NCBI GenBank assembly: GCA_034530935.1
Contig: JAVRCF010000137.1
Coordinates: 1 to 14,573, forward strand
Length of the DNA stretch: 14,573 nt
From: Aulosira sp. DedQUE10
GTDB taxonomy: Bacteria; Cyanobacteriota; Cyanobacteriia; Cyanobacteriales; Nostocaceae
Reading direction: 5' to 3'
The notes below the pieces were generated by a model. That model ran no database searches. It was not told the origin of the DNA and worked only from the letters and a program-made list of their open reading frames with translations. Position numbers and translations under genes: made by a program. How positions within the stretch are numbered: the stretch's first letter is position 1; every line of letters begins with the position of its first letter. Below are positions 1-14,573 of the stretch, piece after piece.

Positions 1-12
1 GGTTTTGAAGAC

Positions 13-38
13 CAATGAAATTGGTGACAATTTCATTG
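13..38. repeat. Perfect inverted repeat / hairpin CAATGAAATT-GGTGAC-AATTTCATTG (10-bp stem, 6-nt loop)
   Basis: Read directly: 13-22 is the reverse complement of 29-38. It lies distal to tandem array A relative to the minus-strand methyltransferase gene. There is no U-tract on either strand, so a terminator role is uncertain. Confidence 0.6.
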
Positions 39-57
39 AGTTTAATAGCCTGTGGGA

Positions 58-204
58 GTTGTACCTTTGAGGCTGAAGGTTGTGGTTTTAAGCTTGGGGG
101 TTGTGGCTTGAAACGTGGGAGTTGTACCTTTGAGGCGGAAAGTTGCGGCTTTGAGCAGAAAAGTTGCGGCTTTGAGCAGGAAAATTGCACCTTTGAGCCT
201 GAAA
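58..204. repeat. Tandem array A: seven contiguous 21-nt units, consensus GTTGYRSCTTTGAGSNKGAAA
   Basis: Units start at 58, 79, 100, 121, 142, 163 and 184, each exactly 21 nt. Units 5 and 6 differ at one base, and an eighth degenerate unit follows (205-225). The 21-nt (7-codon) period keeps frames open on both strands, which explains ORFs 15..278 and 42..227. Confidence 0.9.
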
Positions 205-215
205 TGTCGAGCTTG

Positions 216-243
216 CCCAATGCCCAATTCCCAATTCCCAAAT
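216..243. repeat. STRR-like heptamer tandem repeat (CCCAATG CCCAATT CCCAATT CCCAAAT)
   Basis: Four consecutive heptamers are read directly, and they abut or overlap the stop codon of the minus-strand ORF ending at 243. Short tandemly repeated heptamers are typical of heterocystous cyanobacteria. Confidence 0.7.
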
Positions 244-1694
244 TAAACTTGATAAACCTCATGCCCTCTAATTTCTAGACCATGTGCAGCGAGGCATTTT
301 TCCCAACCTTCACGGGTGCCGATATCGCTTTTTTGCTGGAGTAGCCCTAGTTGCTGTTCTTGCTGGGTGAGTTTAGCAAATTCTTCGTAGCGGGGGTAGT
401 TGGGTGTGACAAAGGTTTCTTTACGATGCAGAATTGGGGGATTTTTCCGGGTTTCGTAGTCGCGGTGGGTGATTTTTAAGGTCAGGAAGTCAATAATGAT
501 ACTGGCTTTTAAAGCGGGATGGGGATCAGTGTCGAATTCTGGGTAAAACAGATAGCAGATTTGCGGTTTATCGGTGCAATATTTGATTAAGGTGGCACCA
601 TCTACACGTCCAATTGTACGGCTGGCGCAGCCTTCATAGATTCGCAGCAAAGCATCGAGTTCTGCAAGGGCCCAAACGTGGACGTAAAGGGCCCCACGGG
701 TATGTTTACCAATTTTGCTTTTTTCGCAGGCTGTTTGCACTACCCTGGGTTGACCTAAGCTAAAAAGTTTTTGGTCGGCGACTCCACAAGCTTCTTCGTA
801 GCTGCCAAAAAAGGCTTTGATGTCGTGACGGATTTCTGGGGCGAGTTTCTGCCATGAGGGGCGTTGCTCAAAGTGAGTCAGGGCGAGATAAACTTGGATA
901 TCCAGAGAGCGACGATATGCGATCGCATCCCATTCGGCTTCGTCGGTAGCTTGTAATACTACGCTAAAGGCGCGGCGGAAGTTACCAAATTCACTCAGTA
1001 GTTCCTGTTCATTACTCAATTCACCTTTAACGGGTAATCTTCCGCGTTGAGTGAAAAAAGCCATCAATGGTGCGAGTAGTTCTTGATAATCTTCAAATCG
1101 CTTGCTGGGTATGCGGACTCTGGGCGTAGAACTTCGAGAAAAGAAGCGGATAGCTTTATAACTTTCTTTTTCGGCTTCATCTCGAAATACAAAGTAAACG
1201 CCTAAAGCCACGGGTACAGCATCTACATTTAGTACCTCATTAATGTAACTTTTAAGTTCTTCTTGCTCGTAATATTTCTGAAAAGTATTGCGGCGAGTAA
1301 CAATACCATCGCTGTAAGCTAATTGTGTTTTACTTGGGGCGTTAATTAGAATTTGTGCAGCGACAATTAAGACTTTGCGGGTAAGTTCCCACGCTTTGAT
1401 TAAGCTTTCGCGACGTTCCTGGGGGTCTTCAATGACGTTAAGGACATAACCCAAGTTGACAACATCAGCGGCGGTGATTTCATCATCAGGATAATAATAA
1501 GGGTCCCAGCCTGCACTGGTGTACCCTAAATTTGCCACGCGCAAGACATCGCCACCGTAGCCGCAACCGTAGTCAAAAAAGGTAGTTTCGGAATTGAGGA
1601 TTGCCCATTCTATAGCCAATCGTACCGGACGAGAGATGTCAGTGCGTGCGATCGCAGCTCGATGACGCTCAATTTCTAAGTAGCTCTCCGACAT
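243..1694 (-). CDS. Putative SAM-dependent methyltransferase of the DNA phosphorothioation-associated type (TIGR04096-like), with a long uncharacterised C-terminal region
   Basis: 483-aa ORF. It has the class-I methyltransferase motif I FDYGCGYGGD (res ~40-49), followed by GWDPYYYP and VVNLGYVLNVIEDP. The N-terminal pattern matches my recollection of the cyanobacterial dnd-associated putative methyltransferase family. It sits 72 nt downstream of dndE on the same strand and contains two HIP1 sites (919-926, 1648-1655). I recognise no motif in the C-terminal ~330 aa. Confidence 0.7.
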   Translation of the reverse strand: MSESYLEIERHRAAIARTDISRPVRLAIEWAILNSETTFFDYGCGYGGDVLRVANLGYTSAGWDPYYYPDDEITAADVVNLGYVLNVIEDPQERRESLIKAWELTRKVLIVAAQILINAPSKTQLAYSDGIVTRRNTFQKYYEQEELKSYINEVLNVDAVPVALGVYFVFRDEAEKESYKAIRFFSRSSTPRVRIPSKRFEDYQELLAPLMAFFTQRGRLPVKGELSNEQELLSEFGNFRRAFSVVLQATDEAEWDAIAYRRSLDIQVYLALTHFEQRPSWQKLAPEIRHDIKAFFGSYEEACGVADQKLFSLGQPRVVQTACEKSKIGKHTRGALYVHVWALAELDALLRIYEGCASRTIGRVDGATLIKYCTDKPQICYLFYPEFDTDPHPALKASIIIDFLTLKITHRDYETRKNPPILHRKETFVTPNYPRYEEFAKLTQQEQQLGLLQQKSDIGTREGWEKCLAAHGLEIRGHEVYQV

Positions 1695-1766
1695 AAGAGC
1701 ATTTACGATTTTGAAAGGATGTAGGATGTGTTAGCAGCAGCATAACGCACCATGATTTATATCCTG

Positions 1767-2153
1767 TCAATCTTTCACCGCTAATTCAATTAAATCTTCA
1801 ATTTTCTTGATATTTGGATCGCCAGCTAAGTAACCAATTCCCCGATGCAAATGTAGGCGAAATTGGGTTGCTAGAGTTTCTTTATCAGTAGCGTAACCGT
1901 CGTTGTGACAACGTTGCTTGAGGGCGAGGAGAAGAATGTCAGACATTTCGCCACCAAATACGCGCCAGGTTAATTCCACGTTGCTATCTTGGGGGATGGG
2001 GACTGGGGAAGGTGGGGTTGCTTCTGCCAGAGAACGGCAAAATGCCCATCGACATAATATATTCCATTGGTCAATTTTGGTGTTGCGGCGAAGTTTAAGC
2101 AGTTGGTCTTTGGCGGTTTGGGAAAGTTTGATTCTTTCAATTGGGGATTCCAT
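1767..2153 (-). CDS. dndE: DNA sulfur modification protein DndE
   Basis: 128 aa, the typical DndE size. The N-terminal pattern IKLSQTAKDQLLKLRRNTKIDQWNILCRWAFCRSLAE matches the DndE signature as I recall it (l.ls..a...L..Lk..Tgi..wNilcRwA...SL). It lies next to a dnd-associated methyltransferase, and dndD is on the same strand in the window. Confidence 0.8.
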   Translation of the reverse strand: MESPIERIKLSQTAKDQLLKLRRNTKIDQWNILCRWAFCRSLAEATPPSPVPIPQDSNVELTWRVFGGEMSDILLLALKQRCHNDGYATDKETLATQFRLHLHRGIGYLAGDPNIKKIEDLIELAVKD

Positions 2154-2186
2154 GATTAAAGGTTAAAGGAATACTTTATATCCGAC

Positions 2187-2472
2187 ATTCCGCACTTCGT
2201 TTTGTAATATGCCAATATTACAAATATTAGACTAATGCTGGTTGAATAGCGATGTCTATCTTGAAAAGTTCAGAATCTCCTTCTCCTATCGGAGACGCTG
2301 CGCGAACGGAGACGCTACGCGAACGGCGGAAACCGCCGCTCCGACTTTTCGCTACGACGGGCTACGCCTACGCCAAAAGCCGAGAAAATATCAGTGTTAA
2401 TACTTAATAATACCAACAATTTTTTGGAAATTTTCTTGAAGTATCAATGTATGACATTTTGAAGTGCGGAAT
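2187..2472. repeat. MITE-like / small dispersed repeat-like element bounded by a perfect 12-nt inverted repeat (ATTCCGCACTTC ... GAAGTGCGGAAT)
   Basis: 2187-2198 is the exact reverse complement of 2461-2472. The interior has a GC-rich core with a tandem 17-mer (GGAGACGCTGCGCGAAC 2291-2307 / GGAGACGCTACGCGAAC 2308-2324) and a GGCGG-AAA-CCGCC hairpin (2325-2337). These motifs resemble repeats common in Nostoc intergenic DNA. I identified no target-site duplication. Confidence 0.4.
2203..2222. promoter_or_regulatory. Palindrome TGTAATAT-GCCA-ATATTACA about 50-70 nt upstream of the dndE start; candidate operator/promoter element
   Basis: 2203-2210 is the reverse complement of 2215-2222. It is followed by a second AATATTA copy (2223-2229). 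A TATAAA -10-like box on the minus strand lies ~21 nt upstream of the dndE ATG. Function is inferred from position only. Confidence 0.3.
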
Positions 2473-2792
2473 CTGGGTTAGATGATAGCTTGCCGAATTT
2501 AATTTAATGGAGAAAACAACAATATTTTCATGAAGTTTCATTGTATTTTTTTTTCAGACTTTCCAACATCAAGACTTTAAGAAGGTTAGTAGTAACTTCA
2601 ATTTGTTTTGATAAACAACGTTTTATTTAAGCATGAAATTACGTAAAAATTAGCAAAATACCGAGAGAAAATAGTCTATCAACATTTGACGCTGCATCCA
2701 GTGGCATTACTCAGGCTATAAAGCAAAACCGGCGAATAATATGATAATTAAACCCAAATTAGGTTGGGATATGTCCAGCCTACTTGTATTTC

Positions 2793-2830
2793 AGACATCA
2801 GATATTTAGCTAGGTTTGATGTCAGTTTTA
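2793..2830 (+). other. Hairpin GACATCA-N16-TGATGTC followed by AGTTTTAATT, in the leader of the 2862 ORF (terminator/attenuator-like)
   Basis: The 7-bp stem (2793-2799 / 2816-2822) is read directly. A T-rich tract follows, and the structure ends ~32 nt before the ATG at 2862. Confidence 0.3.
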
Positions 2831-2861
2831 ATTGAGCATTCCTGTTCATAGAAGGTAAATT

Positions 2862-3740
2862 ATGTCACGTTTTTCTGAAAAGTTTTTCAGCCAACTCCTA
2901 GACTTTTCTGATCTGGAGAAAACAATAGCATCAACAATGCGTTTAGCAGCACAAAGTCCTATTTCGTTCTATCTTTTCTTCCAGCGTTACACATATTTCA
3001 ACGGCTATGCATCTGCTGTGATTTCCAGGCTAGCGAGTTCTATTGCCATGTCTCGCTATTTGTTTACTGACTCTGAAATCTTGGTAACTGAGGAGGCAGA
3101 TAGAGGATTCCAAATTTCTGCTGAGATTATGGTTGCGGCATCTGATGAAGGAGCATACGGAATTACACATCGTGAACTAGCTCAATTGCTGCTCACAAAA
3201 GCAGGAGACTATGCAGGACTCTCTAGCGATGATCGCAACCAATTTTTTCAGGTTCCTGCTTGGTTAGATGAGATTGTCAAGGATGTGATGACTGCTTACC
3301 AGGGAACACCTGGTGATGTTGTTTCCCTAATTCGAGCAATCGGATTTCATGCGGCTTCGGAAATGCTGGGCGATCGCGAGTATGCCCTAATTGACATGAT
3401 TGTCCGTTATGAAAACCAAGGAGTTGGATTTGACCGCTATTTCAAAGAACAGACTACTCCTGTCCAAATCCGAGGTCATCGTTATGATCCCTGGTGCTAT
3501 ATTTTAATCCACGGCAAGCATGAAGGTTCCGGCGCAGAAGCTAGGCACTTTTTGCATGTTGTAGAAGCTCTGAATATGGTAGTTCGCTATCGCCCTGAAT
3601 CAGAGCAACAAATTGTGGAGTGGGTGCTTGAGGGTTATCAAGCATTTGTAGAGTTACAACAGCGCTTGTTCAAAGAACTTTATCGTGAATGTTTGGAACT
3701 GCTTGAGAATTCAAATACAGCGAATTTGATATCTGTTTAA
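2862..3740 (+). CDS. Hypothetical protein; possible heme-oxygenase-like-fold iron-containing redox enzyme (PF14518 / HDO-like)
   Basis: 292-aa ORF, predicted all-helical and soluble. The segment AEIMVAASDEGAYGITHRELAQLLLTKAG resembles the dE.G....H..L..ll..lG core of the iron-containing redox enzyme / heme-oxygenase-like family. Further candidate carboxylate/His ligands are E167 (HAASEMLGD) and H217/H220/E221/H229/H232/E235. It contains a HIP1 site at 3370-3377. Coding status is likely (~0.9), and the product call is tentative (~0.4). Confidence 0.55.
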   Translation: MSRFSEKFFSQLLDFSDLEKTIASTMRLAAQSPISFYLFFQRYTYFNGYASAVISRLASSIAMSRYLFTDSEILVTEEADRGFQISAEIMVAASDEGAYGITHRELAQLLLTKAGDYAGLSSDDRNQFFQVPAWLDEIVKDVMTAYQGTPGDVVSLIRAIGFHAASEMLGDREYALIDMIVRYENQGVGFDRYFKEQTTPVQIRGHRYDPWCYILIHGKHEGSGAEARHFLHVVEALNMVVRYRPESEQQIVEWVLEGYQAFVELQQRLFKELYRECLELLENSNTANLISV

Positions 3741-3924
3741 CTGGCGAACTCTCGGATCTCTCTAAGGTGCATAGACCAATTCGCTCTTTTCCTGATGTTG
3801 ATTTAGATGGGAGCATCTCACTTTTGTAAAAATATCATTAGTTTGGCCAATGGAATTCGTGGCTATACATACAAAACCCGCGTGGTACGAGGGTTTCAAA
3901 TTCCTCAAGTCCGCGCAGGCGGCT

Positions 3925-3957
3925 TACACAAACGTAGGCTTCACCTACGTTTGTGTA
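3925..3957 (+). terminator. Perfect 14-bp stem hairpin TACACAAACGTAGG-CTTCA-CCTACGTTTGTGTA, part of a cluster of small-dispersed-repeat-like hairpins (3873-3957)
   Basis: Read directly. It is preceded by AAACCC...GGGTTT (3874-3896) and CCGC-GCAG-GCGG (3911-3922) hairpins. It lies 185 nt downstream of the 2862..3740 ORF and before the 4033 ORF. Only a weak T-run follows (GGCGTGATTTCT), so it may equally be a repetitive extragenic element. Confidence 0.4.
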
Positions 3958-4032
3958 GGCGTGATTTCTAATAGTCGGGTATATTTGCTGCATCTACTGC
4001 TCATCCATAAACTGGGAAATTAATCAAAAATA

Positions 4033-4689
4033 ATGTTTACTTGGCAAGCGGTAATTGGTGTAGTTGCAGGTTTTCTCTCCCTATTAGGTTTTCTACCGTA
4101 TCTAGTTAGTATCTATCAAGGAAAAACTCGACCCAATAGAGTAACTTGGTGGATTTGGGCGATTGTCGGTCTCATCCTTTGCTCCAGCTATTACTCCTCT
4201 GGAGCTGTTAACACGATATGGGTTCCAGTCTGTTCAGCAGTTGGTCATCTGATTATTGCCATTCTTGCCATTAAATATGGTGAGGGTGGTTGGAACCGCT
4301 TTGACCGAGGGTGTCTATTAAGTGCTGGTATTAGTCTTTTACTTTGGTGGCAGTTTAGCTCTCCCATCATTGCCCTTGTGATCAATATCGGGATTGATTT
4401 TCTAGGTGCATTACCCACAATCAGAAAGTCCTACTATCAACCACAGACAGAAGATCCTTTCACATGGACAATATTTCTGTCGGCACATACACTTAATCTT
4501 TTTGCCCTCAAAAATTGGTCTTTTGCACTCTCAGCTTATCCGCTCTACTTATTTTGCTCCACTGCTACCATCGTTATATTTCTTCTGCGTTCTAAAATGC
4601 AAAGTCAACCAACCGCTTACAAACAGCGCAGAAGCAGAATAATGAACAAAAGCAGGACTTTTTTTGCTCTGATCACGCACTCTAAGTAG
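4033..4689 (+). CDS. 7-TM integral membrane protein with internal duplication; PQ-loop / SWEET-like (3+1+3) architecture
   Basis: 218 aa. I count seven hydrophobic segments (about res 5-27, 37-54, 60-80, 92-108, 111-130, 143-159, 163-185). Helix 1 and helix 5 end in a related motif 106 residues apart: [22 protein letters not shown] (18-39) versus [22 protein letters not shown] (124-145). This resembles the LPQ..k.y..kst.g.s PQ-loop signature. The basic C-terminal tail is probably cytoplasmic. Confidence 0.6.
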
Positions 4690-4727
4690 TTAATGAACAT
4701 TCTAGCGATGTAAACTTCACATCCAAT

Positions 4728-7559
4728 TTGGGAATCTTAGAGTTAGAAAGCCATGAAGATTTGAATAAAGCAACAAACTCGAGTATGTCATTAAAACTCA
4801 TCCCTAGCCAGATTTATAAAGATGGCAAAGCTAAAAAAATCTCACTGCGTTTAATTCTTGTTGTCCCTTTTGTGATGCAAATTGTTACAACTGTGGGTCT
4901 GACGGGATATCTATCGCTACGTAATGGACAAAAAGCTGTTAATGAATTAGCAAATCGATTGCTAACTGAAGTAAGTGAACGCATAGATCAACACCTAGAT
5001 AGCTATATGCAAGTTCCTCAGAAGGTTGTTCTGCTGACCTCTGATGTGATTGATATGGGCTTGTTGGATTTACAAAACAAACAACAACTGGGACAGTTTT
5101 TCTGGAGGCGAATAAAATCATTTGATATCGGCTATATTCTCTTTGGGTTTCAAACAGGTGATTATATTGCCTCTGGATATCTCTTTGGTGACAATCGCAT
5201 TACTATTGATGAATTATCTCCAAAAGATTACAAGGGCAGTACTCATTTATATAGTTGGGCAACCGATAGCCAGGGCAAACGCACCAAGATTATTCAAGAT
5301 AATGGAGAATTTATTGCCAAGAATGAGGGCTGGTATGCAGAGGCCGTAAAACAAGGCAAATCGGTTTGGAGTCCGGTTTATAACTGGTTAGTACCGCCAT
5401 TTAACTTATCTATTGCAGCTAGTCGTCCTATCTATGACTCCAATCATAATCTGCTTGGTGTAATTGCTGCAGAACAACGTCTTTCACAAATTAGTGATTT
5501 CTTGAGCCAATTGAAAGTCAGCCAAACGGGAAAAACCTTTATTATTGAACACAATGGTTTTTTGATTGCCAGTTCTAGTAATGAACAACCCTTCACAATC
5601 AAAAATCAAAAACCCCAACGCCTTTCTGTATTTGAGAGCAAAGACCCACTTATCCAAGCAACTGCAAAACATTTGACTGAACGCTTTGGCAACTTCAGTA
5701 AAATTCGCAATTCTCAGCAAATTGATTTTCTACTCAAGAGTAAGCATCAGTTTGTCCAGGTCACTCCTTGGCGCGATGAGTGGGGACTCAATTGGCTGAT
5801 GGTTGTCGTAGTGCCTGAAGAAGACTTTATGGCTCAGATTCATGCCAATACTCGTACAACAATTATGTTGTGTTTATTAGCTTTAGGACTAGCAACTGTG
5901 TTGGGTTTTTATACATCTCGCTGGATTACCCAACCCATTCTGGAATTGAGTCAGGCTTCTGAGGCGATCGCTGATGGTAAACTTGAGCAGCAAGTAGAAG
6001 AGTCCCATGTTAATGAACTCAGTGTTCTCTCTCAATCGTTCAACCGTATGGCACAGCAGTTGCGCGAGTCTTTCACTATCTTGGCAAAGAGCAATGAAGA
6101 ATTAGAAATCAGGGTTGAGGAACGCACGACCGAACTTAAGGAAGCTAAAGAAGCTGCTGATAGTGCCAACACAGCCAAAAGTGAATTCCTTGCCAACATG
6201 AGCCATGAACTACGTACACCTCTCAATGGGATTTTAGGCTATGCCCAAATCCTTCAAACCTCGAAAAATCTCACAGAGAAACAGCATAGAGGCATCAATA
6301 TTATTAATCAATGTGGCTCACACCTCCTGACCCTAATTAATGATATTCTTGACCTCTCCAAAATCGAAGCCCGGAAAATGGAATTGCATCCTACAAGTTT
6401 TCATTTTCCTTCTTTTCTGCAAGCAGTTTCTGAAATTTGTCGCATTAAAGCCGAACAAAAGGGTATTACTTTTGTTTATCAACCTGATGAACGACTGCCA
6501 ATTGGCATCCAAGCTGATGAAAAACGTTTGCGTCAAGTTTTGATCAATTTATTGGGCAATGCGATTAAGTTTACTGAAAAAGGTACTGTCACATTTGAAG
6601 TAAAAATTCAGCAGATTAAAAATCGCGATCAAGACAAACCATTAACCTACCAAATTCGCTTCCAAGTGGAAGACACTGGTGTAGGTATGGCTAGTGAGCA
6701 AATAGAGAAAATCTTTTTACCCTTTGAGCAGGTAGGTAACATTAAAAAACAATCAGAGGGAACAGGATTAGGTTTAGCTATTAGTCATAAAATTGTTGCC
6801 ATAATGGGCAGCACTATAGAAGTGCAAAGCCAACTGGAACAGGGTAGCATTTTTTGGTTTGATATAGAAATCCCTGAAGCACAAGAATGGGCAAATAAAT
6901 CTAAAGTTTCTCAACAGGAAACGATTGTTAGTTTTAAAGGCGAAAAACGAAAAATTCTAGTAGTAGATGACCGTTGGGAAAATCGGTCTGTATTAGTTAA
7001 TCTGTTGGAACCCATTGGTTTTGAAATTGTAGAAGCAGAAAATGGACAAGAAGCATTAGTAAAAACTGCTGAGTTTCTGCCTAACTTGATGATCACCGAT
7101 GTTAATATGCCAGTGATGAATGGATTGGAGATGATACAAAATTTGCGAAATTCTCCCGATTGGAAAGATTTAAAGATAATTGTCTCATCAGCAAGTGTGT
7201 TTGACTCTGATAAGCAGAAGAGTTTAGATGCAGGCGGCGATGACTTTCTTCCCAAGCCTGTGCAAGCATCTGACCTATTTGAAAAATTACAGACTTATCT
7301 AGAACTAGAATGGATTTATGAGGACAAATCAACATCCTTACCAATTATAAAAGAAATAGTTATTCCTCCAATGGAGGAACTAAATCAGTTATATGAACTG
7401 GCATTACAATGTCGGATTAAAGCGCTACAAAATAAATTAAATCAACTAGAAAAAATGGATATTAGGTTTAGACCTTTTATTGAAGAAATACAACATTTAG
7501 CGCAAAAATTCCAAATAGAAAAACTTCAAACTACTCTAAATAAGTATATTCAATTATAA
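4728..7559 (+). CDS. Hybrid sensor histidine kinase: TM - Cache-like extracytoplasmic domain - TM - HAMP - coiled coil - HisKA - HATPase_c - receiver - helical C-terminal extension
   Basis: 943 aa from the TTG at 4728; the first in-frame ATG is at 4785 (MSLKLIPS...), an equally plausible start. The N-terminal TM motif [36 protein letters not shown] is characteristic of cyanobacterial Cache-type kinases. A second TM lies at about res 376-397. The H-box is SHELRTPLN (His codon 6204-6206). N/G boxes are [12 protein letters not shown] and DTGVGM...GTGLGLAI. The receiver has VVDD...MITDVNMP (Asp codon 7098-7100) and a K in FLPKP. There is a HIP1 site at 5964-5971. Confidence 0.9.
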
Positions 7560-7625
7560 ATAAATGAGGTTCTAGTTTGTGAAAATGTAATTCTTTACGA
7601 TAATTTTTTATAAAAATGTAAAAAA

Positions 7626-9059
7626 ATGCATAATTCAGAGACAAATTTAATTTTAATTGTTGATGATACTCCTACAAACTTAGAAATGCTATCGGAAGCT
7701 CTAGCAGATGCAGGATTTGATGTGGCAGTTGCAACTACTGGAGAAATTGCAATTAAGCAAGTTGAATATGCTCCACCAAAACTGATTTTGTTGGATGTAA
7801 TGATGCCGGAAATTGATGGATTTGAAACCTGTTATCGATTGAAGGCAAATCCTAAAACAAAACATATTCCGATAATTTTTATGACTGCCCTTGCTGATAC
7901 AGTAGATAAAGTCAAAGGTCTGTCTTTAGGTGCTGTGGATTACATCACTAAGCCGTTTCAGCAAGCGGAGGCCCTAGCCCGTATTCAAATTCATTTACAG
8001 CTGCAAAATATTAGTGCAGAAATGGAGAAACAAAATGCACGTCTTCAACAAGAAATTGAAGAACGAGTAGCGGCAGAATTAGCTTTACAGAAGCTAACTC
8101 AAGATTTAGAGCACCGGGTAGAAGAGAGGACAAAGGAACTCTCCCAAGCACTGCAAGATTTACAAAAAACTCAAGTGAAGCTGATCCAGTCAGAAAAATT
8201 AGCTACACTGGGTCAGTTAGTAGCAGGTGTTGCACACGAAATTAATAATCCAGTCAACTTTATACATGGCAATCTTGAGTATGCCAGTTCCTATATTCAA
8301 GACTTGCTAGAACTCATCAAACTCTATCAGACTCAGTACCCTAATCCAACTCCAGAGATTGCTAACAAATCAAATGAAATTGAACTAGAGTTTCTCAGGC
8401 TAGATTTACCAAAAATAGTCTCTTCAATGGCAGTTGGGACTCAACGGATTCAGGAAATCGTCAAATCTTTCCGCAACTTCTCCCGTCATGACGAAGCTGA
8501 AGTCAAAACAGTAGATATCCACGATGGGTTAAACAGTACACTAATGATCATCGACCATCGCTTGAAGGAGAAAGCAGGCTGTCCGGCGATTCAAGTGATT
8601 AAAGAGTATGGAAATTTGCCTCGAGTTGAGTGCTTTGCCGGAAAAATGAACCAGGTTTTTCTCAACGTCCTCAGCAATGCAATTGATGCTTTGGAAGAGT
8701 TCATGGAAAATGAGCATTGTTTTCGTTGTACCCGATCGCCGATGATTCGGATTCAGACAGAAGTTCTGGAAGGCGATCGCATTGCTATTCGAATTGCTGA
8801 TAATGGACTAGGAATCGCAGAAGCAGTTCAAAAGCGATTGTTTGACCCCTTCTTCACAACTAAACCTGCGGGTAAAGGAACTGGTTTGGGGATGTCGATT
8901 AGCCATCAGATTGTGGTTGAAAAACACGGTGGCTCGTTGTACTGTATCTCCAGCCCAGGGAAAGGTGCGGAGTTTGTAATTGAGATTCCAATTCAGCAGG
9001 TAAATTTCGTTGCAAATAAGCAGCGTAGCGAAGTGGCTCTTGCGGGCTATTGGATCTAG
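7626..9059 (+). CDS. Receiver-histidine kinase (N-terminal REC, coiled coil, HEINNP-type HisKA, HATPase_c)
   Basis: 477 aa. The REC domain has IVDDTPTN, LLDVMMP (Asp57 codon 7794-7796) and ITKPF. The H-box is GVAHEINNPVNF (His codon 8235-8237). ATPase boxes are LNVLSNAIDA, DNGLGI and GKGTGLGMSI. I found no TM or obvious sensory domain. The start is 66 nt downstream of the hybrid kinase. There is a HIP1 site at 8773-8780. Confidence 0.9.
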   Translation: MHNSETNLILIVDDTPTNLEMLSEALADAGFDVAVATTGEIAIKQVEYAPPKLILLDVMMPEIDGFETCYRLKANPKTKHIPIIFMTALADTVDKVKGLSLGAVDYITKPFQQAEALARIQIHLQLQNISAEMEKQNARLQQEIEERVAAELALQKLTQDLEHRVEERTKELSQALQDLQKTQVKLIQSEKLATLGQLVAGVAHEINNPVNFIHGNLEYASSYIQDLLELIKLYQTQYPNPTPEIANKSNEIELEFLRLDLPKIVSSMAVGTQRIQEIVKSFRNFSRHDEAEVKTVDIHDGLNSTLMIIDHRLKEKAGCPAIQVIKEYGNLPRVECFAGKMNQVFLNVLSNAIDALEEFMENEHCFRCTRSPMIRIQTEVLEGDRIAIRIADNGLGIAEAVQKRLFDPFFTTKPAGKGTGLGMSISHQIVVEKHGGSLYCISSPGKGAEFVIEIPIQQVNFVANKQRSEVALAGYWI

Positions 9060-9066
9060 TTTGACC

Positions 9067-11049
9067 TTAGTAAAAATACTTGTTTTCTATTACTGTTGTT
9101 TGGCGAGTGGTGGAGTTGTATTCTAATAGGTATTCGTGGGCGATCGCTTCATTCTCTCTCAGTACCTCTACTTCTTTTTTACCTATTTCAGTATCAGTGG
9201 ATAGCAAAATTACCTGATGGCTGGCGGAAGGAAAGTAACGTTCTACTAAGTTGCTGCGGTGGGAGGAGTCGAGTCTTCCGAGTGGTGTGTCAATTGCTAC
9301 CGGAAGACGACGACCGGAGACTCGTGCTAAACCCCACAAAAATGCGATCGCCAGAAGTTGTTTTTCGCCAGCAGAAAGGCGATGTTTGGGGACTGGCTGG
9401 CCGTTTAAATCGTAAAGCGAAAGACTGAAGGTATGAGTGTCAATAGCCACGCGATGGACTAAATCGGATTTGTGTAGCAAGTAACGAAAGCACTCTGTCA
9501 CTTCGACTTCTAATTTATTGAGTTTTCTCAGGGTTAATTTCTTCCGAAAAAGTTTGAGAGTATCTTGAACTTTTGCAGCAGATGTGATTATATGTTCTCT
9601 ATTTTTGCGGTCGATATTCGTTTCACTATATTTTTCTAAATATTTTTTAGTATTGTCAATCTCAGTTGCTAATTCCTCCAAACGGCGTTTGGCTATTTCC
9701 CAAGCAGCTTTAGCTTCCGCAACTTGCTGTTGTGCTTGTTGTAATTCATCAACCAGCCTTTGATATTCTTCTGGTGAGGCTGCGGTTTGAATTTGCCTTT
9801 CTAAAGTGATAATTTCTTCTTCTTGAGACTGAAGAAATGTAATTTTATCTTTAGCCTTGGTTTTCGCATACTCAAGGTAATGATGAATCATATTATCTAA
9901 CTGATGCAGGGTTTCTGTATCAGCCAATAACCAAGGTTCAGTGATGACTGCGTTATCTAAATCTTGATTTTCTTGGGTGATAAATTCTTGAATCTGAGTT
10001 ACTGCTTCGTCTGCAAGAGCTAATTTATTAATCAAGTTGAGTAACTTTTTATCTCGCTCAATTAATAAATCATGAGCCACTTTCGCTTGTTGAACGCGAA
10101 ATTCTTTTTCGCCTTGGCTGTAAGCTTCATTTAGTAGAGGTGCAATCAATCCCAGAGGTAAAACATCAGCAGCTAAATCACATAGCGATTGACGGATTTT
10201 TTCTGTTTCCCCAATTCTTTCTAGCTTTTGTTTCTCTAACTGGCTGCGTTCTCCAGCAATTTTACCACCCTCAGAAATAAATTTATTCACAGCTTCCTGC
10301 TGTCTATTTTCGGCTGCTATTAAATTTTCTTGGAGAGATGTAATTAATTGCGATTCTACATTATACGCCTCTTGAGCCTCTTTCAACTTGTCTTCAATTT
10401 CTTCTAAATTTGCCAAATCTTTAGTATCAGCAAGTTCCTTGCGTTTGCGGTTGACTAAAATATCTAAATCCACTGCTAATCTTTCTGCCAACTCTAGCCC
10501 TAAAAGTCCGCTAATAGCATCTACTACAATTGGCGGTGGTACTTCCTGTTCTGCAAGTTCTTTAACTTGTTCGCCATCGAATAAAAATAAGTTAGAAATT
10601 CCTAGAGGTAGAAGATTTTCAATATATTCATCCCAAATATTTACTAAAGCCGTATCCAACCATTCATGGGCATCTAAAATCCCTAAATGGTCTTTACCAT
10701 CTTTAGGATTTTTTTCCCAAGTACGGACAACACGGTATTTTACTGGCTGGTCATTTTCGATATGTTCAAAAACTAATTCAATGCGCGTTTTCTCAACTGG
10801 CTCAGCTTTACTATTAACGCATTGAGTTAAGAAATCGCTATAACTTAAGTTACCACGGGTTGAACATTGGGCGCGATGACCATAAAGGGCGAGGCGAATT
10901 GCATCCATAAGGGTGGTTTTTCCGCCACCATTCATTCCACCTAACAGAATAATAGGGCGAGAATTTTCACTATTTCTTGGGTCAAGATTGATTACCTGTT
11001 TACCAGCGTAGGGGCCAAAGTTTTGTAATACGAGTTCAAGAAATATCAT
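9067..11049 (-). CDS. dndD: DNA sulfur modification protein DndD (SMC/ABC-like ATPase)
   Basis: 660 aa. The N-terminus MIFLELVLQNFGPYAGKQ...GGMNGGGKTTLMDAIRLALYG contains Walker A. A long central coiled coil follows. The C-terminus LSAGEKQLLAIAFLWGLARVSGRRLPVAIDTPLGRLDSSHRSNLVERYFPSASHQVILLSTDTEI has the ABC signature, Walker B and D-loop, and matches the DndD family pattern as I recall it. HIP1 sites lie at 9140-9147 and 9344-9351. Confidence 0.85.
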   Translation of the reverse strand: MIFLELVLQNFGPYAGKQVINLDPRNSENSRPIILLGGMNGGGKTTLMDAIRLALYGHRAQCSTRGNLSYSDFLTQCVNSKAEPVEKTRIELVFEHIENDQPVKYRVVRTWEKNPKDGKDHLGILDAHEWLDTALVNIWDEYIENLLPLGISNLFLFDGEQVKELAEQEVPPPIVVDAISGLLGLELAERLAVDLDILVNRKRKELADTKDLANLEEIEDKLKEAQEAYNVESQLITSLQENLIAAENRQQEAVNKFISEGGKIAGERSQLEKQKLERIGETEKIRQSLCDLAADVLPLGLIAPLLNEAYSQGEKEFRVQQAKVAHDLLIERDKKLLNLINKLALADEAVTQIQEFITQENQDLDNAVITEPWLLADTETLHQLDNMIHHYLEYAKTKAKDKITFLQSQEEEIITLERQIQTAASPEEYQRLVDELQQAQQQVAEAKAAWEIAKRRLEELATEIDNTKKYLEKYSETNIDRKNREHIITSAAKVQDTLKLFRKKLTLRKLNKLEVEVTECFRYLLHKSDLVHRVAIDTHTFSLSLYDLNGQPVPKHRLSAGEKQLLAIAFLWGLARVSGRRLPVAIDTPLGRLDSSHRSNLVERYFPSASHQVILLSTDTEIGKKEVEVLRENEAIAHEYLLEYNSTTRQTTVIENKYFY

Positions 11050-11285
11050 TTATCTCTGTTGGTTGGATGAAATACTGGAGGAAGAGAATTTTGGTTACAC
11101 AGGGAAGCAATTATAAAACACCGGGCTGGACTTTTAGCATGAAAAATGTTTTCTACTCAATTGAAAATAGCTATCAAACAAGCCTTACCAAAGTAAATCT
11201 TAATAGATTTGGATTATTTATTCCCAAATGAGTTGGGCTAGATTAAAATTTCCATCAGTATAATCTCGTATTTAATGCTTAAACT
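11050..11285. promoter_or_regulatory. Divergent intergenic region between dndD and the NLR-like locus, with candidate -10 boxes on both strands
   Basis: A TATAAT box on the plus strand at 11259-11264 lies 21 nt before the ATG at 11286. A TATAAT box on the minus strand (plus-strand ATTATA at 11110-11115) lies ~60 nt before the dndD ATG. Neither has a convincing -35 element, so the calls rest on position only. Confidence 0.3.
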
Positions 11286-11660
11286 ATGGAGCCTGTGACA
11301 CTGACAGCAGCCGCGATCGCTACCTTAGTTATTACGAAAGCTTTTGAAAAAATTGGTGAAATCCTAGGCGAGAAGGCTTTAAAGCAAGGTGGTAACTTAT
11401 TATCGCTGCTCAAGCGCAAAGAACCTACTATAGCGAAAACTATTGAACTGGCTCAAACACAACCTTTAGATTACGGTCAAGCTTATCTCATTGGGCAGCA
11501 AGTAGAGGAAGCGGCAAAGAAAGATAATGAAATAGCTGAAGCTGTCGCAGCCTTGGCAAAGGAAGCACAACCGCAATTAACTCAAACTATTGAAAATTAT
11601 CAAGGGATAATCATCAAAGGCGGAACTAATACTATTTCTGGCAATACCTTTAACTTCTGA
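11286..11660 (+). CDS. 124-aa helical protein with a hydrophobic N-terminal helix and a G/N/T-rich C-terminal tail; probable N-terminal effector/adaptor module of the downstream NB-ARC protein
   Basis: ATG start with a TATAAT box upstream. The N-terminus is MEPVTLTAAAIATLVITKAFEKIGEILGEKALKQ (hydrophobic, then amphipathic). The middle is Ala/Glu/Lys-rich and helical. The tail is NYQGIIIKGGTNTISGNTFNF. The ORF ends at TGA 11658-11660, which is in frame with the next ORF. There is a HIP1 site at 11313-11320. Confidence 0.7.
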   Translation: MEPVTLTAAAIATLVITKAFEKIGEILGEKALKQGGNLLSLLKRKEPTIAKTIELAQTQPLDYGQAYLIGQQVEEAAKKDNEIAEAVAALAKEAQPQLTQTIENYQGIIIKGGTNTISGNTFNF

Positions 11661-11720
11661 CTACAGCCGCCTGAACGGGAACAGGTAAAGTCTCATCCCC
11701 TTAGTGAAATACCGCAAAAT

Positions 11721-12971
11721 TTGCCCCTTAGTGGAGTGGTAATATTTGTTGGACGTGGGGAAGAATTGCAAAAACTCCACAAACTTTTGCAGCAAAATCA
11801 ACAAGTAACCATTGCTGCGATCGCGGGGATGGGTGGAGTTGGGAAAACAGAACTCGCCTTACAATATGCCATCCAGTACCGCGACAATTATCAAGGTGGA
11901 ATTTGCTGGTTGTTGCCAAAATCTGGGGATATTGGCGTGCAAATTGTCCAGTTTGCCAGAACGCAGCTTGATTTAAACCCGCCGTCAGATTTCGATTTAC
12001 CCGCGCAAGTGCAATACTGTTGGCGGCGTTGGCGTGAGGGTGATGTACTGCTGGTGTTGGATGATGTTGCTGATTACCAGAAAGTCAAACCTTACCTATC
12101 GTCGCTATCTTCTCGGTTTAAAATACTGATTACCACTCGCCAGCACTTGGGATGCATAGCAGAATTATCCTTAGATGTATTGCAACCAGAGGCGGCGCTG
12201 GAATTATTAAAGTCAATTATTGGGGTTGAACGGGTTGAACAGGAAAATCACCGCACCCCCCAAATAGCATTACAGTTATGTGAGTGGCTGGGATATTTGC
12301 CTTTGGGTTTAGAGTTGGTGGGGCGGTATCTGGCGCGGAAACAAGATTTATCTTTAGCAGAAATGCTGCGACGGTTGGAGAAAAAGCGACTAGAACAACC
12401 CGCACTTGGTAAGCCAGAAGCCGACATGACAGCACAACGGGGTGTGTTAGCAGCCTTTGAGTTGAGTTGGCAAGAATTACAGGATAGCGATAAACAACTG
12501 GGCTGTTTATTGAGTTTATTTGCAACCGCACCCATACTTTGGAATTTGGTGGAACAGTGTTTACCACAGGAAGACGGGGAAGATTTAGAAGAAATTAGAG
12601 ATGATAAATTGCTAAAACTGCATTTACTCCAGTGGAAAGGTGAGGGAGTCTATCAATTACATCCCCTGCTGCAGGAGTTTTTCCAATATAAGCTTACAGC
12701 TTTAGAGCAGGCAGAGGAATTAAAGCATTCTTTTTGCAAAGTAATAGTAGCAGTTGCTAAAAAGATTCCTGATTATCCTACCTTTGAGCAAATCACTGAT
12801 GTCAATTTGGCAAAACTCTACTACTTACAAGGACGTTATACACAAGCAGAACCATTGTATCTGCAAGCATTGGAGATTTATGAGCCACGATTAGGGGTGA
12901 ATCATCCTAACACTGTCAAGTTTCGTGAAAATTTGGCAAATCTTCGCGCCCAACTCTCCTCAGAACAATAA
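11721..12971 (+). CDS. NB-ARC (STAND/NLR-like) NTPase with a single residual TPR unit; probably N-terminally truncated or interrupted
   Basis: The P-loop is GMGGVGKT (11826-11849). Walker B is LLVLDDV, followed by KILITTR and a GLPL-like LPLGLELVGRYLA motif. The C-terminus is the TPR_10/12-type NLAKLYYLQGRYTQAEPLYLQALEIYEPRLGVNHPNTVKFRENLANL. The only available start is TTG 11721, which falls inside the conserved-looking IPQNLPLSG..FVGR linker. The 20 codons upstream are sense codons in the same frame back to the TGA at 11658. There is a HIP1 site at 11817-11824. Confidence 0.8.
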   Translation: MPLSGVVIFVGRGEELQKLHKLLQQNQQVTIAAIAGMGGVGKTELALQYAIQYRDNYQGGICWLLPKSGDIGVQIVQFARTQLDLNPPSDFDLPAQVQYCWRRWREGDVLLVLDDVADYQKVKPYLSSLSSRFKILITTRQHLGCIAELSLDVLQPEAALELLKSIIGVERVEQENHRTPQIALQLCEWLGYLPLGLELVGRYLARKQDLSLAEMLRRLEKKRLEQPALGKPEADMTAQRGVLAAFELSWQELQDSDKQLGCLLSLFATAPILWNLVEQCLPQEDGEDLEEIRDDKLLKLHLLQWKGEGVYQLHPLLQEFFQYKLTALEQAEELKHSFCKVIVAVAKKIPDYPTFEQITDVNLAKLYYLQGRYTQAEPLYLQALEIYEPRLGVNHPNTVKFRENLANLRAQLSSEQ

Positions 12972-13019
12972 AATTCCAGTTCTCAGCTTCATCATTCAAG
13001 CTTTTATCTCCAAGTTCCG

Positions 13020-13187
13020 TGTTCTGAACTCAAAGTTTAGTGTTCCAAACGAGAACGTTCCTGTTTCAACCTCGAAGCTTCGTGTTCCAAACGAGAATTT
13101 TCCTGTTCCAAACGAGAACGTTCTTGTTCCAAGCTCGAAGTTTCGTGTTCCAAACGAGAATGTTCCTGTTTCAAACTCGAAGTTTCC
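13020..13187. repeat. Tandem array B: eight contiguous 21-nt units of two interspersed subtypes (TGTTCCAAACGAGAAYGTTCC and TGTTYCAARCTCGAAGYTTCG)
   Basis: Units start at 13020, 13041, 13062, 13083, 13104, 13125, 13146 and 13167, each exactly 21 nt. Degenerate units flank the array (about 12978-13019 and 13188-13208). The array begins ~50 nt after the NB-ARC stop. The periodicity explains the spurious ORFs 12925..13242 and 12996..13235. Confidence 0.9.
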
Positions 13188-13188
13188 T

Positions 13189-13260
13189 GTTCTGAGGTGG
13201 AATGATGGTGTTATGGAGGAGGAGTGTGGTGTCATGAGGTAGGATGAAGAGCGATAGATT
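13189..13260. repeat. Direct repeat copy A (pairs with 13818-13879)
   Basis: Hand alignment of GTTCTGAGGTGGAATGATGGTGTTATGGAGGAGGAGTG...ATAGATT against copy B gives about 45 of 61 aligned positions identical, with one 11-nt indel. Confidence 0.6.
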
Positions 13261-13368
13261 TAAAATGGAATCCATTCCAACTGATCTATCCATTCTTCTG
13301 CCTCAGTCGTCTCCCAAATTAGCAAGAGTTCTTGTGCTATCGTAGGGTTCAGACGCAAAACATCTGAT

Positions 13369-13442
13369 GTAGGTTGCCTTGAGCAAGGTGAAACCCAACA
13401 AACTCGGGAAAACGTTGGGTTTCGTTCCTCAACCCAACCTAC
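13369..13442. repeat. Nested inverted-repeat element (GTAGGTTG...GAAACCCAAC-N14-GTTGGGTTTC...CAACCTAC), Nostoc-type dispersed palindromic repeat; possible terminator for the DUF433 gene
   Basis: The outer 8-bp arms are 13369-13376 / 13435-13442 and the inner 10-bp arms are 13390-13399 / 13414-13423, read directly. The motif TTGGGTTTCGTTCCTCAACCCAACCTAC is one I recognise as recurrent in Nostoc/Anabaena intergenic DNA. It lies 22 nt downstream of the DUF433 stop. Confidence 0.6.
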
Positions 13443-13463
13443 AATTTTCCCTAATGTTATACT

Positions 13464-13802
13464 TCATACTTCAGTTGACTTTTTAATATTCAAGAGACGT
13501 TGTACCAAAGGTGAAGGATGAGCAACCGATTCTTGGTAACGCTGTTCACGCCATGCAGCTAAACGTGATAAAGAAGCATTGATGCTGGCTCGATTATGGA
13601 GATAGTAAGTAACAGTAGCATGAATCTGCTCTAAACTTAGAGTTGGTAGATTAGCCGCAATTTCTTCTGGTGTATATCCTTCCAAATAATAATCAAGCAC
13701 ATTGTCAATGCCGATGCGATGTCCTTTGATGCGAATATCATCCTCGGATAAAAAGTCAAAATAATCTTCTAGCTGCATTGCCAGACCCCAAATGGAGTTC
13801 AT
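13464..13802 (-). CDS. DUF433 domain protein (antitoxin-like, helix-turn-helix)
   Basis: 112 aa. The segment IRIKGHRIGIDNVLDYYLEGYTPEEIAANLPTLSLEQIHATVTYYL matches the DUF433 pattern (r..GtRi.v..vl......G.s.eeI...yp.lt.e.i.aal.Y) as I recall it. No intact partner ORF is adjacent. Confidence 0.75.
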   Translation of the reverse strand: MNSIWGLAMQLEDYFDFLSEDDIRIKGHRIGIDNVLDYYLEGYTPEEIAANLPTLSLEQIHATVTYYLHNRASINASLSRLAAWREQRYQESVAHPSPLVQRLLNIKKSTEV

Positions 13803-13817
13803 TGCTATATTATCTCA

Positions 13818-13879
13818 CTTCACAGATGGAATGACGGTGTTGTGAAGGCGGGGTGCAGCTTACTGAAGTAGAATAGATT
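13818..13879. repeat. Direct repeat copy B (pairs with 13189-13260); forms the 5' leader region of the DUF433 gene
   Basis: CTTCACAGATGGAATGACGGTGTTGTGAAGGCGGGGTG...ATAGATT, aligned by hand to copy A (see the copy A feature). Confidence 0.6.
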
Positions 13880-13963
13880 GCTTGCAAAAGTGCCTAACGA
13901 CTAATATCATTTCACGAAATGCCTGATACAAATGATCAATCTCTAATTCTTTCCCCCTGTCCG

Positions 13964-13989
13964 TTGAGACGCGATTAATCGCGTCTCAA
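13964..13989. terminator. Perfect 26-nt palindrome TTGAGACGCGATTAATCGCGTCTCAA just 3' of the minus-strand CBM-like gene; hairpin terminator or dispersed palindromic repeat
   Basis: The sequence is self-complementary over all 26 nt, read directly. It lies 18 nt downstream of the stop at 14007. No U-tract follows on the minus strand. The GAGACGCGATTAATCGCGTCTC core is a motif I recall as recurrent in Nostoc genomes. Confidence 0.45.
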
Positions 13990-14006
13990 GCCAGCCCCCC
14001 TGCCTC

Positions 14007-14573
14007 TTAATTATTTGCTGGAACCAGTTCCACATCTGCACAGGAACCACCTGTCAGGCTATAGTCATCTACCTGAACCCAGCTATCTTGACCCAATGCC
14101 CAGAATCCTGTGAAGATATTGTACTGAGTTTTATTGCCGGTTCTAAATGATAGCGTCAGAGGCGTGTAGCGAGGTAAGCTACCAAACTTGATTTCTGAAA
14201 ACACCTTCTGCCTAGCATCTCGCACTCCAAAATAACCGTCTGTAACGTTGCCCGATGTGCGTATATATGCTGTTAACTTATATTGAGTGTTGGGTTGTAG
14301 TCTAACGCGTTGACGAATACCATTCCATCCAGAAGTATTCCGCATCCAGACATTGTTTTTACCCCCATTGCTGTAGCCCAATCCGATATCAACGCCAACT
14401 CTACCTTCTCCAACCCAAGGGCTGCTGAGTCTTTGTCTAGTCTGTGCTTCAAAGTCTCCACTTGTGAGGGGGGAAGTACATGAAGCTTGAGCCTGAGTAG
14501 AGCAGAAATTAAGGGCAGTTACAGCGGTTAAGAATACTGCTATTTTGCTGATAGAGAACTGTTTGCTAGCCAT
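14007..14573 (-). CDS. Secreted protein with a carbohydrate-binding-module-like beta-sandwich domain (CBM_4_9-like)
   Basis: 188 aa. It has a Sec-type signal peptide MASKQFSISKIAVFLTAVTALNFCSTQAQA. It also has GDFE...W...G near the domain start and a beta-rich pattern (YKLTAYIRTSG, YFGVRD, WVQVDDYSL) typical of CBM/galactose-binding-like folds. The ATG coincides with the last bases of the window, so a longer upstream start cannot be excluded. Confidence 0.6.
   Translation of the reverse strand: MASKQFSISKIAVFLTAVTALNFCSTQAQASCTSPLTSGDFEAQTRQRLSSPWVGEGRVGVDIGLGYSNGGKNNVWMRNTSGWNGIRQRVRLQPNTQYKLTAYIRTSGNVTDGYFGVRDARQKVFSEIKFGSLPRYTPLTLSFRTGNKTQYNIFTGFWALGQDSWVQVDDYSLTGGSCADVELVPANN

Follow-up and report, generated by a model that had tools for sequence, protein, structure and literature searches.

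The dndD and dndE-methyltransferase genes of Aulosira sp. DedQUE10 probably form one half of a dispersed Nostocales dnd system

The Dnd systems for phosphorothioate (PT) modification of DNA are known from the canonical dndABCDE clusters of Streptomyces lividans, Salmonella Cerro 87, and E. coli B7A. IscS substitutes for dndA in many clusters, as established for E. coli (PMC3519819). Rakesh et al. 2024 (PMC10853773) described DndD and DndE as a co-evolving scanning core, reported neighbourhoods with the DndDE pair alone, and defined PbeC, a member of the PbeABCD/CxC systems (Xiong et al. 2019, PMC6459918; PMC10853773), as a CxC-type ATP-binding cassette (ABC) ATPase. In Nostocales, dnd genes were found to be enriched and vertically inherited, with dndFGH absent (Jian et al. 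2021, PMC8569181). That cyanobacterial dnd clusters are disordered is already published in the same study, which speaks of "disorder of the operon structure", "various configurations", and an "incomplete dnd gene cluster"; in its view, Cyanobacteria are without PT restriction components. Here we analysed a stretch of 14,573 nt from Aulosira sp. DedQUE10 (GenBank assembly GCA_034530935.1, contig JAVRCF010000137.1, positions 1 to 14,573 of the forward strand), hereafter the window, which carries dndD, dndE, and a putative methyltransferase gene (MT). We consider it probable that the window holds the dndD/dndE-MT half of a Nostocales dnd system whose genes are dispersed, and that an unrelated two-component operon was inserted here in a lineage-specific manner.

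Genes were called from a six-frame listing of open reading frames (ORFs) and from hidden Markov model (HMM) scans (Pfam, NCBIfam, and PADLOC) over the whole window (Table 1). An earlier note, made from the letters of this DNA, had described a fragmented dnd locus, and the scans bore out its gene placement. dndD and dndE lie on the same strand in D-then-E order, separated by four opposite-strand genes (2862-9059) and, by ORF coordinates, by 6,913 nt. Its assignment of DndD and DndE was upheld by the HMM searches, with scores far above the curated cut-offs. DndD matched the TIGR03185 equivalog at 731.9 bits (cut-off 245.85), residues 1-659 aligning with profile positions 1-650 of 650, and its ATPase motifs were intact (Walker A GMNGGGKT at 38, signature LSAGE at 558, Walker B VAIDTP at 584, STD at 617). 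DndE scored 152 bits on PF08870 (cut-off 25) and 138.4 bits on TIGR03184 (cut-off 71.85), and was 92-97% identical to its counterparts in relatives. The claim that no dndA, dndB, dndC, or restriction partner is nearby was also confirmed for the window, where the three sets of scans found no encoded DndC, DndB, DndA, DndFGH, Pbe, or Ssp protein. DndFGH gave zero PADLOC, NCBIfam, or Pfam matches among the window proteins, PbeA gave no PADLOC match in the window, and a cysteine desulfurase was encoded neither in the window nor in any relative locus fetched. Rfam and tRNA scans of the window returned no matches. Two details of the note required correction. The "dndE-methyltransferase" comprises both genes, but as two ORFs with 72 nt between them and no fusion. 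The divergent region of 236 bp and the NLR-like gene upstream of dndD are present, but the NLR-like gene is truncated and a 124-aa ORF precedes it.

Set against the canonical clusters, the window is alike in its equivalog-level DndD and DndE with intact ATPase motifs and in its lack of dndA, which it shares with many IscS-substituted clusters (PMC3519819). It differs in that its dnd genes are not one operon, the dndC and dndB genes of its relatives being 32-693 kb away, and in having 6.9 kb of opposite-strand genes between D and E, an extra TIGR04096 methyltransferase, and no dndFGH. With the Nostocales clusters (PMC8569181) it shares the same monophyletic, vertically inherited DndD lineage, the disorder, and the absence of dndFGH, and our survey of 80 loci agrees with this; the specific 6.9-kb two-component insert between dndD and dndE is what the window adds. 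The "DndDE dyad only" neighbourhoods (Rakesh et al. 2024) resemble the window in having DndD and DndE without DndA, DndB, or DndC, here together with a methyltransferase. Unlike them, the window pair is 6.9 kb apart and the dndC of the clade lies elsewhere, so the locus is not truly dyad-only. The immediate operonic linkage of a "linked dyad" is missing from the window; the dndD-dndE gap in Tolypothrix PCC 7910 is 8 bp.

The DndD family is widespread in Nostocales, and the relatives of the window have either contiguous or split clusters. The complete order dndB/dndC-dndD-dndE-MT was found in locus L002 (an ENA contig; DndD 93% identical to that of the window) and in Aulosira ZfuVER01 (L025; 92%), and the spacers of both hold small mobile or toxin-antitoxin genes. 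The split relatives carry dndD-dndE-MT without dndC within 10 kb; they are Tolypothrix PCC 7601 and Fremyella NIES-3275 (DndD identity 90%), Calothrix FACHB-156 (89%), and PCC 7910 (88%). An intact dndC was found elsewhere in all three closest genomes with large assemblies (Table 1). By cluster membership, the DndC proteins of PCC 7601 and NIES-3275 are EKE98720.1 and BAY90015.1, respectively, and the DndB of PCC 7910 is QIR41096.1. Calothrix brevissima NIES-22 is probably split as well, the sole basis being distant locus tags (MT NIES22_35760 versus DndB NIES22_40890). The suggestion of the earlier note that the cluster may be scattered across the genome thus holds for the closest relatives, but a distant dndC was not seen in the source genome.

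Comparison of the region around dndD placed the window with the split lineage. A stretch of about 170 nt preceding dndD, with a perfect TATAAT box 60 nt before the dndD ATG, was conserved in the window, PCC 7601 (L004), and PCC 7910 (L006), and was unlike the corresponding sequence of the contiguous-cluster relatives L002 and L025. This region is presumed to be the dndD promoter of the split-cluster lineage. Further out, positions 11658-12803, which flank dndD on the NB-ARC side, had 87% DNA identity to PCC 7601 (L004), and positions 13963-14573 were also syntenic. The shared dndD-upstream sequence and the NB-ARC synteny with PCC 7601 indicate that the dndC/dndD breakpoint was probably inherited from a common ancestor of the window and its split relatives.

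We then asked how the separated genes have evolved, using pairwise Nei-Gojobori ratios of nonsynonymous to synonymous substitution (dN/dS) for dndD, dndE, and MT among the window, L002, L004, L006, and L025. dN/dS was 0.08-0.14 for dndD, 0.03-0.07 for dndE, and 0.04-0.065 for MT. These low values held where both genomes were split (dS 0.27-0.62), examples being the window versus L004 (0.093 at dS 0.62) and L004 versus L006 (0.099). On the other side of the split, dN/dS in split genomes was 0.06-0.17 for dndC, 0.06-0.085 for dndB, and 0.03-0.065 for a PbeC-like CxC ATPase encoded near dndB. Both halves have been kept under purifying selection since the split, and the low ratios in split pairs argue against decay and for continued function in trans.

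The dispersed arrangement is not peculiar to these strains. DndC, DndD, DndE, and MT were mapped on the best 80 species-representative Nostocales dndC loci. dndD lay within 10 kb in 68 of the 80; 8 had none within at least 9 kb, and in 4 the sequence ended early. Downstream of dndD, dndE was present in 48 of the 68, with a D-E gap of up to 100 bp in 13 loci, 101-1000 bp in 26, and more than 1 kb in 9, and 14 of the 68 had no dndE within at least 6.5 kb. MT directly followed dndE in 40 of the 48 loci with dndE, and was missing from 7 of these dndCDE loci despite at least 4 kb of downstream sequence. Fragmentation of dnd is common across Nostocales, and the dispersed window locus is ordinary for the group. 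The idea that the locus might be a new variant did not survive this comparison.

In split genomes, the dndB/dndC locus has a recurring composition. It runs from LexA through an SF2 helicase, a small protein, a CxC ATPase, a porin, and a Uma2-family gene to dnd_assoc_4 (accompanied by an HNH gene in some genomes), DndB, a divergent DndC, a 231-aa ORF, and a Bax1/XPB pair. The SF2 helicase (493 aa) scored 669 bits on TIGR04095 dnd_restrict_1 and matched the PADLOC PbeA model over its helicase part only (239-681 of 682), the N-terminal HKD nuclease region being absent. A small protein of 57 aa and a PbeC-like CxC ATPase of 690 aa complete the module, which was seen upstream of dndB in L007, L089, L090, L093, and L096. 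dnd_assoc_4 was considered as a candidate cognate of DndE (PbeD), and its BLASTP comparison with DndE was not significant. The other half of the system in relatives is therefore like the PbeABCD/CxC systems in having a PbeA-like helicase, the 57-aa protein, and a CxC ATPase. The differences are that none of these is found in the window, that the window ATPase is of the DndD type, and that the PbeA-like helicase of relatives lacks the N-terminal nuclease region. Judged by homology, modification and restriction-like partners exist in the Tolypothrix/Calothrix clade, at another locus.

The DndC proteins of the clade were not uniform. The PP-loop had the canonical SGGKDS in PCC 7910, FACHB-156, and L002, and SWGKDS in NIES-3275 (L089 10001-11668) and T. 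tenuis PCC 7101 (L051 10001-11668); the PCC 7601 protein is identical to that of NIES-3275 (P0242). Tolypothrix DndC alleles were 75-77% identical to the DndC of L002. Across L089, L093, L096, and L051, dndC had an amino acid identity of 75-82% and a dS of 0.75-1.3, and was far more diverged than its neighbours, dndB being 91-96% and the CxC ATPase 96-98% identical in the same loci. Since this divergence exceeds that of the neighbours while dN/dS stays at 0.06-0.17, it suggests that dndC was replaced allelically by recombination in Tolypothrix/Calothrix genomes.

Together, these results fit the following course of events. The ancestral order would have been dndB/dndC-dndD-dndE-MT. An old rearrangement in the Tolypothrix/Calothrix sublineage would have moved dndD-dndE-MT away from dndB/dndC, which would have stayed beside the Pbe-like module of SF2 helicase, 57-aa protein, CxC-type ABC ATPase, and dnd_assoc_4. 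Later, in the source organism, a 6.9-kb block of two unknown genes and a two-gene two-component unit would have entered the insertion-prone dndD-dndE spacer. dndD and dndE-MT must now be separate transcription units, because opposite-strand genes intervene and end 7 nt from the dndD stop codon (the last kinase gene and dndD converge, with the distance read from the sequence). The earlier note had offered separate transcription units as one option, and this follows from the opposite-strand genes and from the conserved TATAAT segment upstream of dndD. Transcription of dndD would start from a conserved promoter of its own (TATAAT at 11115-11110), and that of dndE-MT from a promoter within 2154-2861. 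DndD (the ABC ATPase) and DndE (DNA binding) would assemble in trans with a DndC encoded elsewhere and a housekeeping cysteine desulfurase, and the DndCDE complex would, as established Dnd biochemistry predicts, write phosphorothioate into DNA. The source organism's own genome would accordingly be expected to hold dndB/dndC, to use these promoters, and to have PT activity. The earlier note had reserved the name of an ordinary dispersed cluster for a locus with intact dndB and dndC beyond the window, a conserved gene order, and PT modification; the relatives show the first two, and PT modification would be a prediction.

Several points weigh against this reconstruction. The source sequence is one contig of about 14.7 kb, and dndC or dndB was never seen in the same genome. 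Sequence matches outside the assembly gave no help in this respect, since the one exact match to the window DndD was a 4.2-kb Logan contig (SRR25993473) of the same sequence, and the Logan-only DndC matches P0125 and P0243 trace to other samples. For these strains, the literature searched contained neither PT chemistry nor expression data. Promoter-like hexamers are present on the minus strand of the dndE upstream region (2682-2655 and 2447-2419), and hexamers in the promoter scan were not enriched over shuffled sequence. The SWGKDS version of DndC and a DndB truncated to 433 aa next to an insertion sequence (IS; DDE transposase) in NIES-3275 raise the concern that the other half may be impaired in the relatives that share the NB-ARC junction (PCC 7601/NIES-3275 and PCC 7101). 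Finally, a close relative, L087 (GCA_032153685.1, JASEJY010000224.1), has a decayed cluster in which DndD is a fragment of 93 aa, DndB is split, DndC is intact, DndE is present, and MT is in pieces of 251 and 242 aa.

Some of these points would be expected if the window were a decaying remnant, with dndD, dndE, and MT orphaned after the loss of dndB and dndC and the insert a sign of relaxed constraint. The DndD fragment and the split MT and DndB of L087, the IS-truncated DndB and SWGKDS loop of NIES-3275, the truncated NB-ARC gene beside dndD in the window, and the failure to see dndC in the source genome all point this way. We nevertheless regard decay as unlikely. dndD, dndE, and MT remain full-length ORFs whose motifs are intact, a dN/dS of 0.03-0.14 holds even between split genomes, and purifying selection acts on a canonical dndC in both PCC 7910 and FACHB-156. 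The earlier note's option of a decaying cluster finds no support in these genes. A different reading is that DndD, DndE, and MT form an autonomous module, in which a DndDE scanning pair recruits MT for a methyl mark, carries out a modification apart from the PT sulfur step, or acts in some other way without DndC. MT travels with dndD-dndE, and not with dndC, in every split genome, in addition to following dndE in most loci of the survey; it is under very strong purifying selection (dN/dS about 0.05); its family, TIGR04096, is uncharacterised in the literature searched; and Rakesh et al. 2024 (PMC10853773) argued that DndD/CxC-DndE cores can take on methylases instead of PT enzymes. If so, the split would expose two separable units, dndB/dndC with the Pbe-like module and dndD with dndE-MT, of which dndE-MT is the tightest, a picture to which we attach little credence. 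dndC is under purifying selection in every split genome examined, MT is in the same cluster as dndC in most Nostocales, and 7 of the 48 loci with dndE do without MT. In addition, no DNA-methylase motifs occur in MT, and the structures that it weakly matches are class-I methyltransferases acting on small molecules and RNA. We consequently hold an autonomous module to be improbable.

A third reading concerns the identity of the ATPase. Were it a restriction component of the PbeC type (a CxC ABC ATPase), the locus would be a Pbe-like defence module and not a modification module, and the PADLOC PbeC model PDLC02731 does score the window ATPase higher (988 bits) than the best DndD model (800 bits). 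The window protein, however, has no CxC motif, its cysteines being at 62, 77, 290, and 520 only, and it matches the TIGR03185 equivalog at 732 bits. The true CxC paralogue (690 aa, CIC at 338-340) behaved in the opposite way: a different PbeC model gave it 1179 bits, PDLC02731 only 127 bits, and TIGR03185 172 bits, which is short of the cut-off. In contiguous relatives the counterpart of the window ATPase occupies the dndD slot of dndC-dndD-dndE. The CxC test and the cross-scoring of models led us to reject the PbeC identity given by PADLOC, and the chance that it is nonetheless correct is, in our estimate, minute; the window gene is therefore a canonical DndD. PDLC02731 appears, from these scores, to be a cyanobacterial DndD model under a wrong label, and automated defence calls in Nostocales could mislabel DndD as PbeC. 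The dispersed dnd system remains the reading that we favour.

Table 1. Features of the window, and positions of dndC and dndD in split relatives
Feature	Position	Strand	Basis or remark
Methyltransferase MT, 483 aa	243-1694	-	TIGR04096 dnd_rel_methyl
dndE, 128 aa, DNA-binding partner of DndD	1767-2153	-	PF08870 and TIGR03184
Divergent intergenic region, 708 bp	2154-2861		between dndE and the 292-aa gene
292-aa protein without credible family match, first gene of insert	2862-3740	+	ORF listing
218-aa protein, second gene of insert	4033-4689	+	ORF listing
Hybrid sensor histidine kinase, 943 aa (dCache_1, HAMP, HisKA, HATPase_c, REC)	4728-7559	+	Pfam
Response-regulator/histidine kinase, 477 aa (REC, HisKA, HATPase_c)	7626-9059	+	Pfam
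dndD, 660 aa, canonical non-CxC coiled-coil ABC ATPase of the Dnd modification module	9067-11049	-	TIGR03185
dndD upstream region, 236 bp, divergent	11050-11285	-	presumed dndD promoter
124-aa ORF and truncated NB-ARC/TPR (NLR-like) gene, not dnd	11286-12971	+	Pfam NB-ARC, TPR
PCC 7910 dndC	8,357,274-8,358,941	+	about 32 kb from dndD
PCC 7910 dndD	8,390,675-8,392,654	-
FACHB-156 dndC	87,159-88,868	-	about 57 kb from dndD, one contig
FACHB-156 dndD	28,426-30,405	+
NIES-3275 dndC	near 2.556 Mb		about 693 kb from dndD
NIES-3275 dndD	near 1.862 Mb
PCC 7601 dndC	scaffold JH930368.1		different scaffold from dndD
PCC 7601 dndD	scaffold JH930361.1

MT scored 712.6 bits (cut-off 150) on TIGR04096, [quoted passage not shown], and had no Pfam match. 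Near its N-terminus it carries a class-I S-adenosylmethionine-binding motif (DYGCGYGGD, residues 41-49). An AlphaFold (AF2) model had a mean predicted local distance difference test score (pLDDT) of 73 and only its C-terminal domain, some 280 residues long, was modelled with confidence. Foldseek against the PDB gave only weak matches (E of 0.019 or higher, none below 0.01) and no DNA methylase, and a sequence search of the PDB gave nothing below E = 0.2. A structure-based function for MT was dropped, because the model was unreliable over its N-terminal half and the PDB matches were this weak. TIGR04096 was mentioned only in passing, by one paper in the literature searched. Just past the MT stop codon, positions 212-241 match 7-nt-period tandem arrays of other Nostocales loci (e.g. 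L013 13215-13334 and L061 19578-19634), which resemble cyanobacterial heptamer repeats.

The insert between dndD and dndE was delimited by DNA comparison. Homology of the window to relatives was confined to 214-2179 (MT and dndE) and to 9072-11090 onward (dndD and its upstream region), and 2180-9071 had no counterpart in relatives and was unique to the window. Exactly at the left breakpoint, where homology ends at about 2179-2181, lies an element of 302 bp (2179-2480) that has 31-nt inverted repeats at its ends and, within it, a tandemly duplicated 17-nt stretch (2290-2326); the dndE ATG is 26 nt away, with the element on its upstream side. The dndE-MT promoter would have to lie within the divergent intergenic region that includes this element. 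The 292-aa protein had no credible family in the Pfam, NCBIfam, and PADLOC scans, with only a sub-threshold match to PF21411 (19.2 bits; cut-off 27), and no homologue in loci L001-L086. The 218-aa protein had no match in the same three scans and is a putative multi-pass membrane protein, going by visual inspection of its hydrophobic stretches only. The hybrid histidine kinase is unrelated to dnd. A mobile-element origin of the insert was considered and rejected: no direct or inverted repeats flank both ends, there is no transposase, and a plasmid search gave only distant paralogues, the nearest similar kinase pairs being on Nostocales plasmids at 64-68% DNA identity.

By comparison with other loci, the 6.9-kb insert looks to be one more insertion into a permissive D-E spacer. 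Elsewhere this spacer carries PemK toxin-antitoxin pairs (common), 23S_rRNA_IVP four-helix proteins, T5orf172, Nodularia histidine kinases, a TreS/Mak fusion, a BrxL fragment with DUF4007, and a DUF726 hydrolase. The Nodularia kinases are encoded on the same strand as the dnd genes (L012 14763-16913; L015 14467-16605 and 17439-20255). As sensor parts they have a phosphonate-binding/PAS module and an amino-acid-permease-like module, and their kinase cores are 51-55% identical to the second window kinase. A functional link between histidine kinases and the spacer was rejected, since their recurrence there seemed to us consistent with chance: the kinases differ in architecture, Nostocales have many of them, and the rest of the spacer cargo is varied. 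Also within the insert, a 37-56-nt sequence resembling repetitive extragenic palindromes (REP; window 3845-3900) recurs in at least nine other Nostocales loci, in their dndC-dndD spacers and dndB-dndC intergenic regions. Its copy in L002 adjoins an IS200-like Y1 transposase gene (9504-9917), and next to the window copy comes a hairpin (3922-3960) whose stem is 17 bp long.

On the other side of dndD, the NB-ARC/TPR gene (11721-12971) encodes 416 aa, while the orthologue in PCC 7601 has 688 aa; some 1 kb of the TPR-coding part is missing from the window copy. Tandem arrays with a 21-nt period stand on either side of the region, at 52-198 and 12999-13244, inside the mechanical ORFs 15-278 (+, 87 aa) and 12925-13242 (+, 105 aa). 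Translated, the first of these ORFs would have Cys-rich heptads (e.g. SCTFEAE, GCGFKLG), and PCC 7601 has a conserved counterpart of the right array (L004 6732-6920). A palindromic element of about 80 nt at 13368-13449, which resembles a miniature inverted-repeat transposable element (MITE), matched both strands in several Nostocales loci (L004 9845-9926, two copies in L063 17216-17400, L064 5785-5872, and L095 4546-4612). In PCC 7601, one copy separates the dndD start codon from the conserved TATAAT box.

These results leave the understanding of Dnd systems unchanged. What they add to the published survey (PMC8569181) is that purifying selection acts on both split halves and that dndB/dndC comes with a Pbe-like module in the Tolypothrix/Calothrix clade, though cyanobacteria were described as being without PT restriction partners. 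Unrelated and defence-type genes have repeatedly come to lie in the dndD-dndE spacer. For annotation, the absence of dndC next to dndD in Nostocales does not mean that the system is incomplete. The halves of a dnd system can sit tens to hundreds of kb apart and yet evolve under strong constraint.

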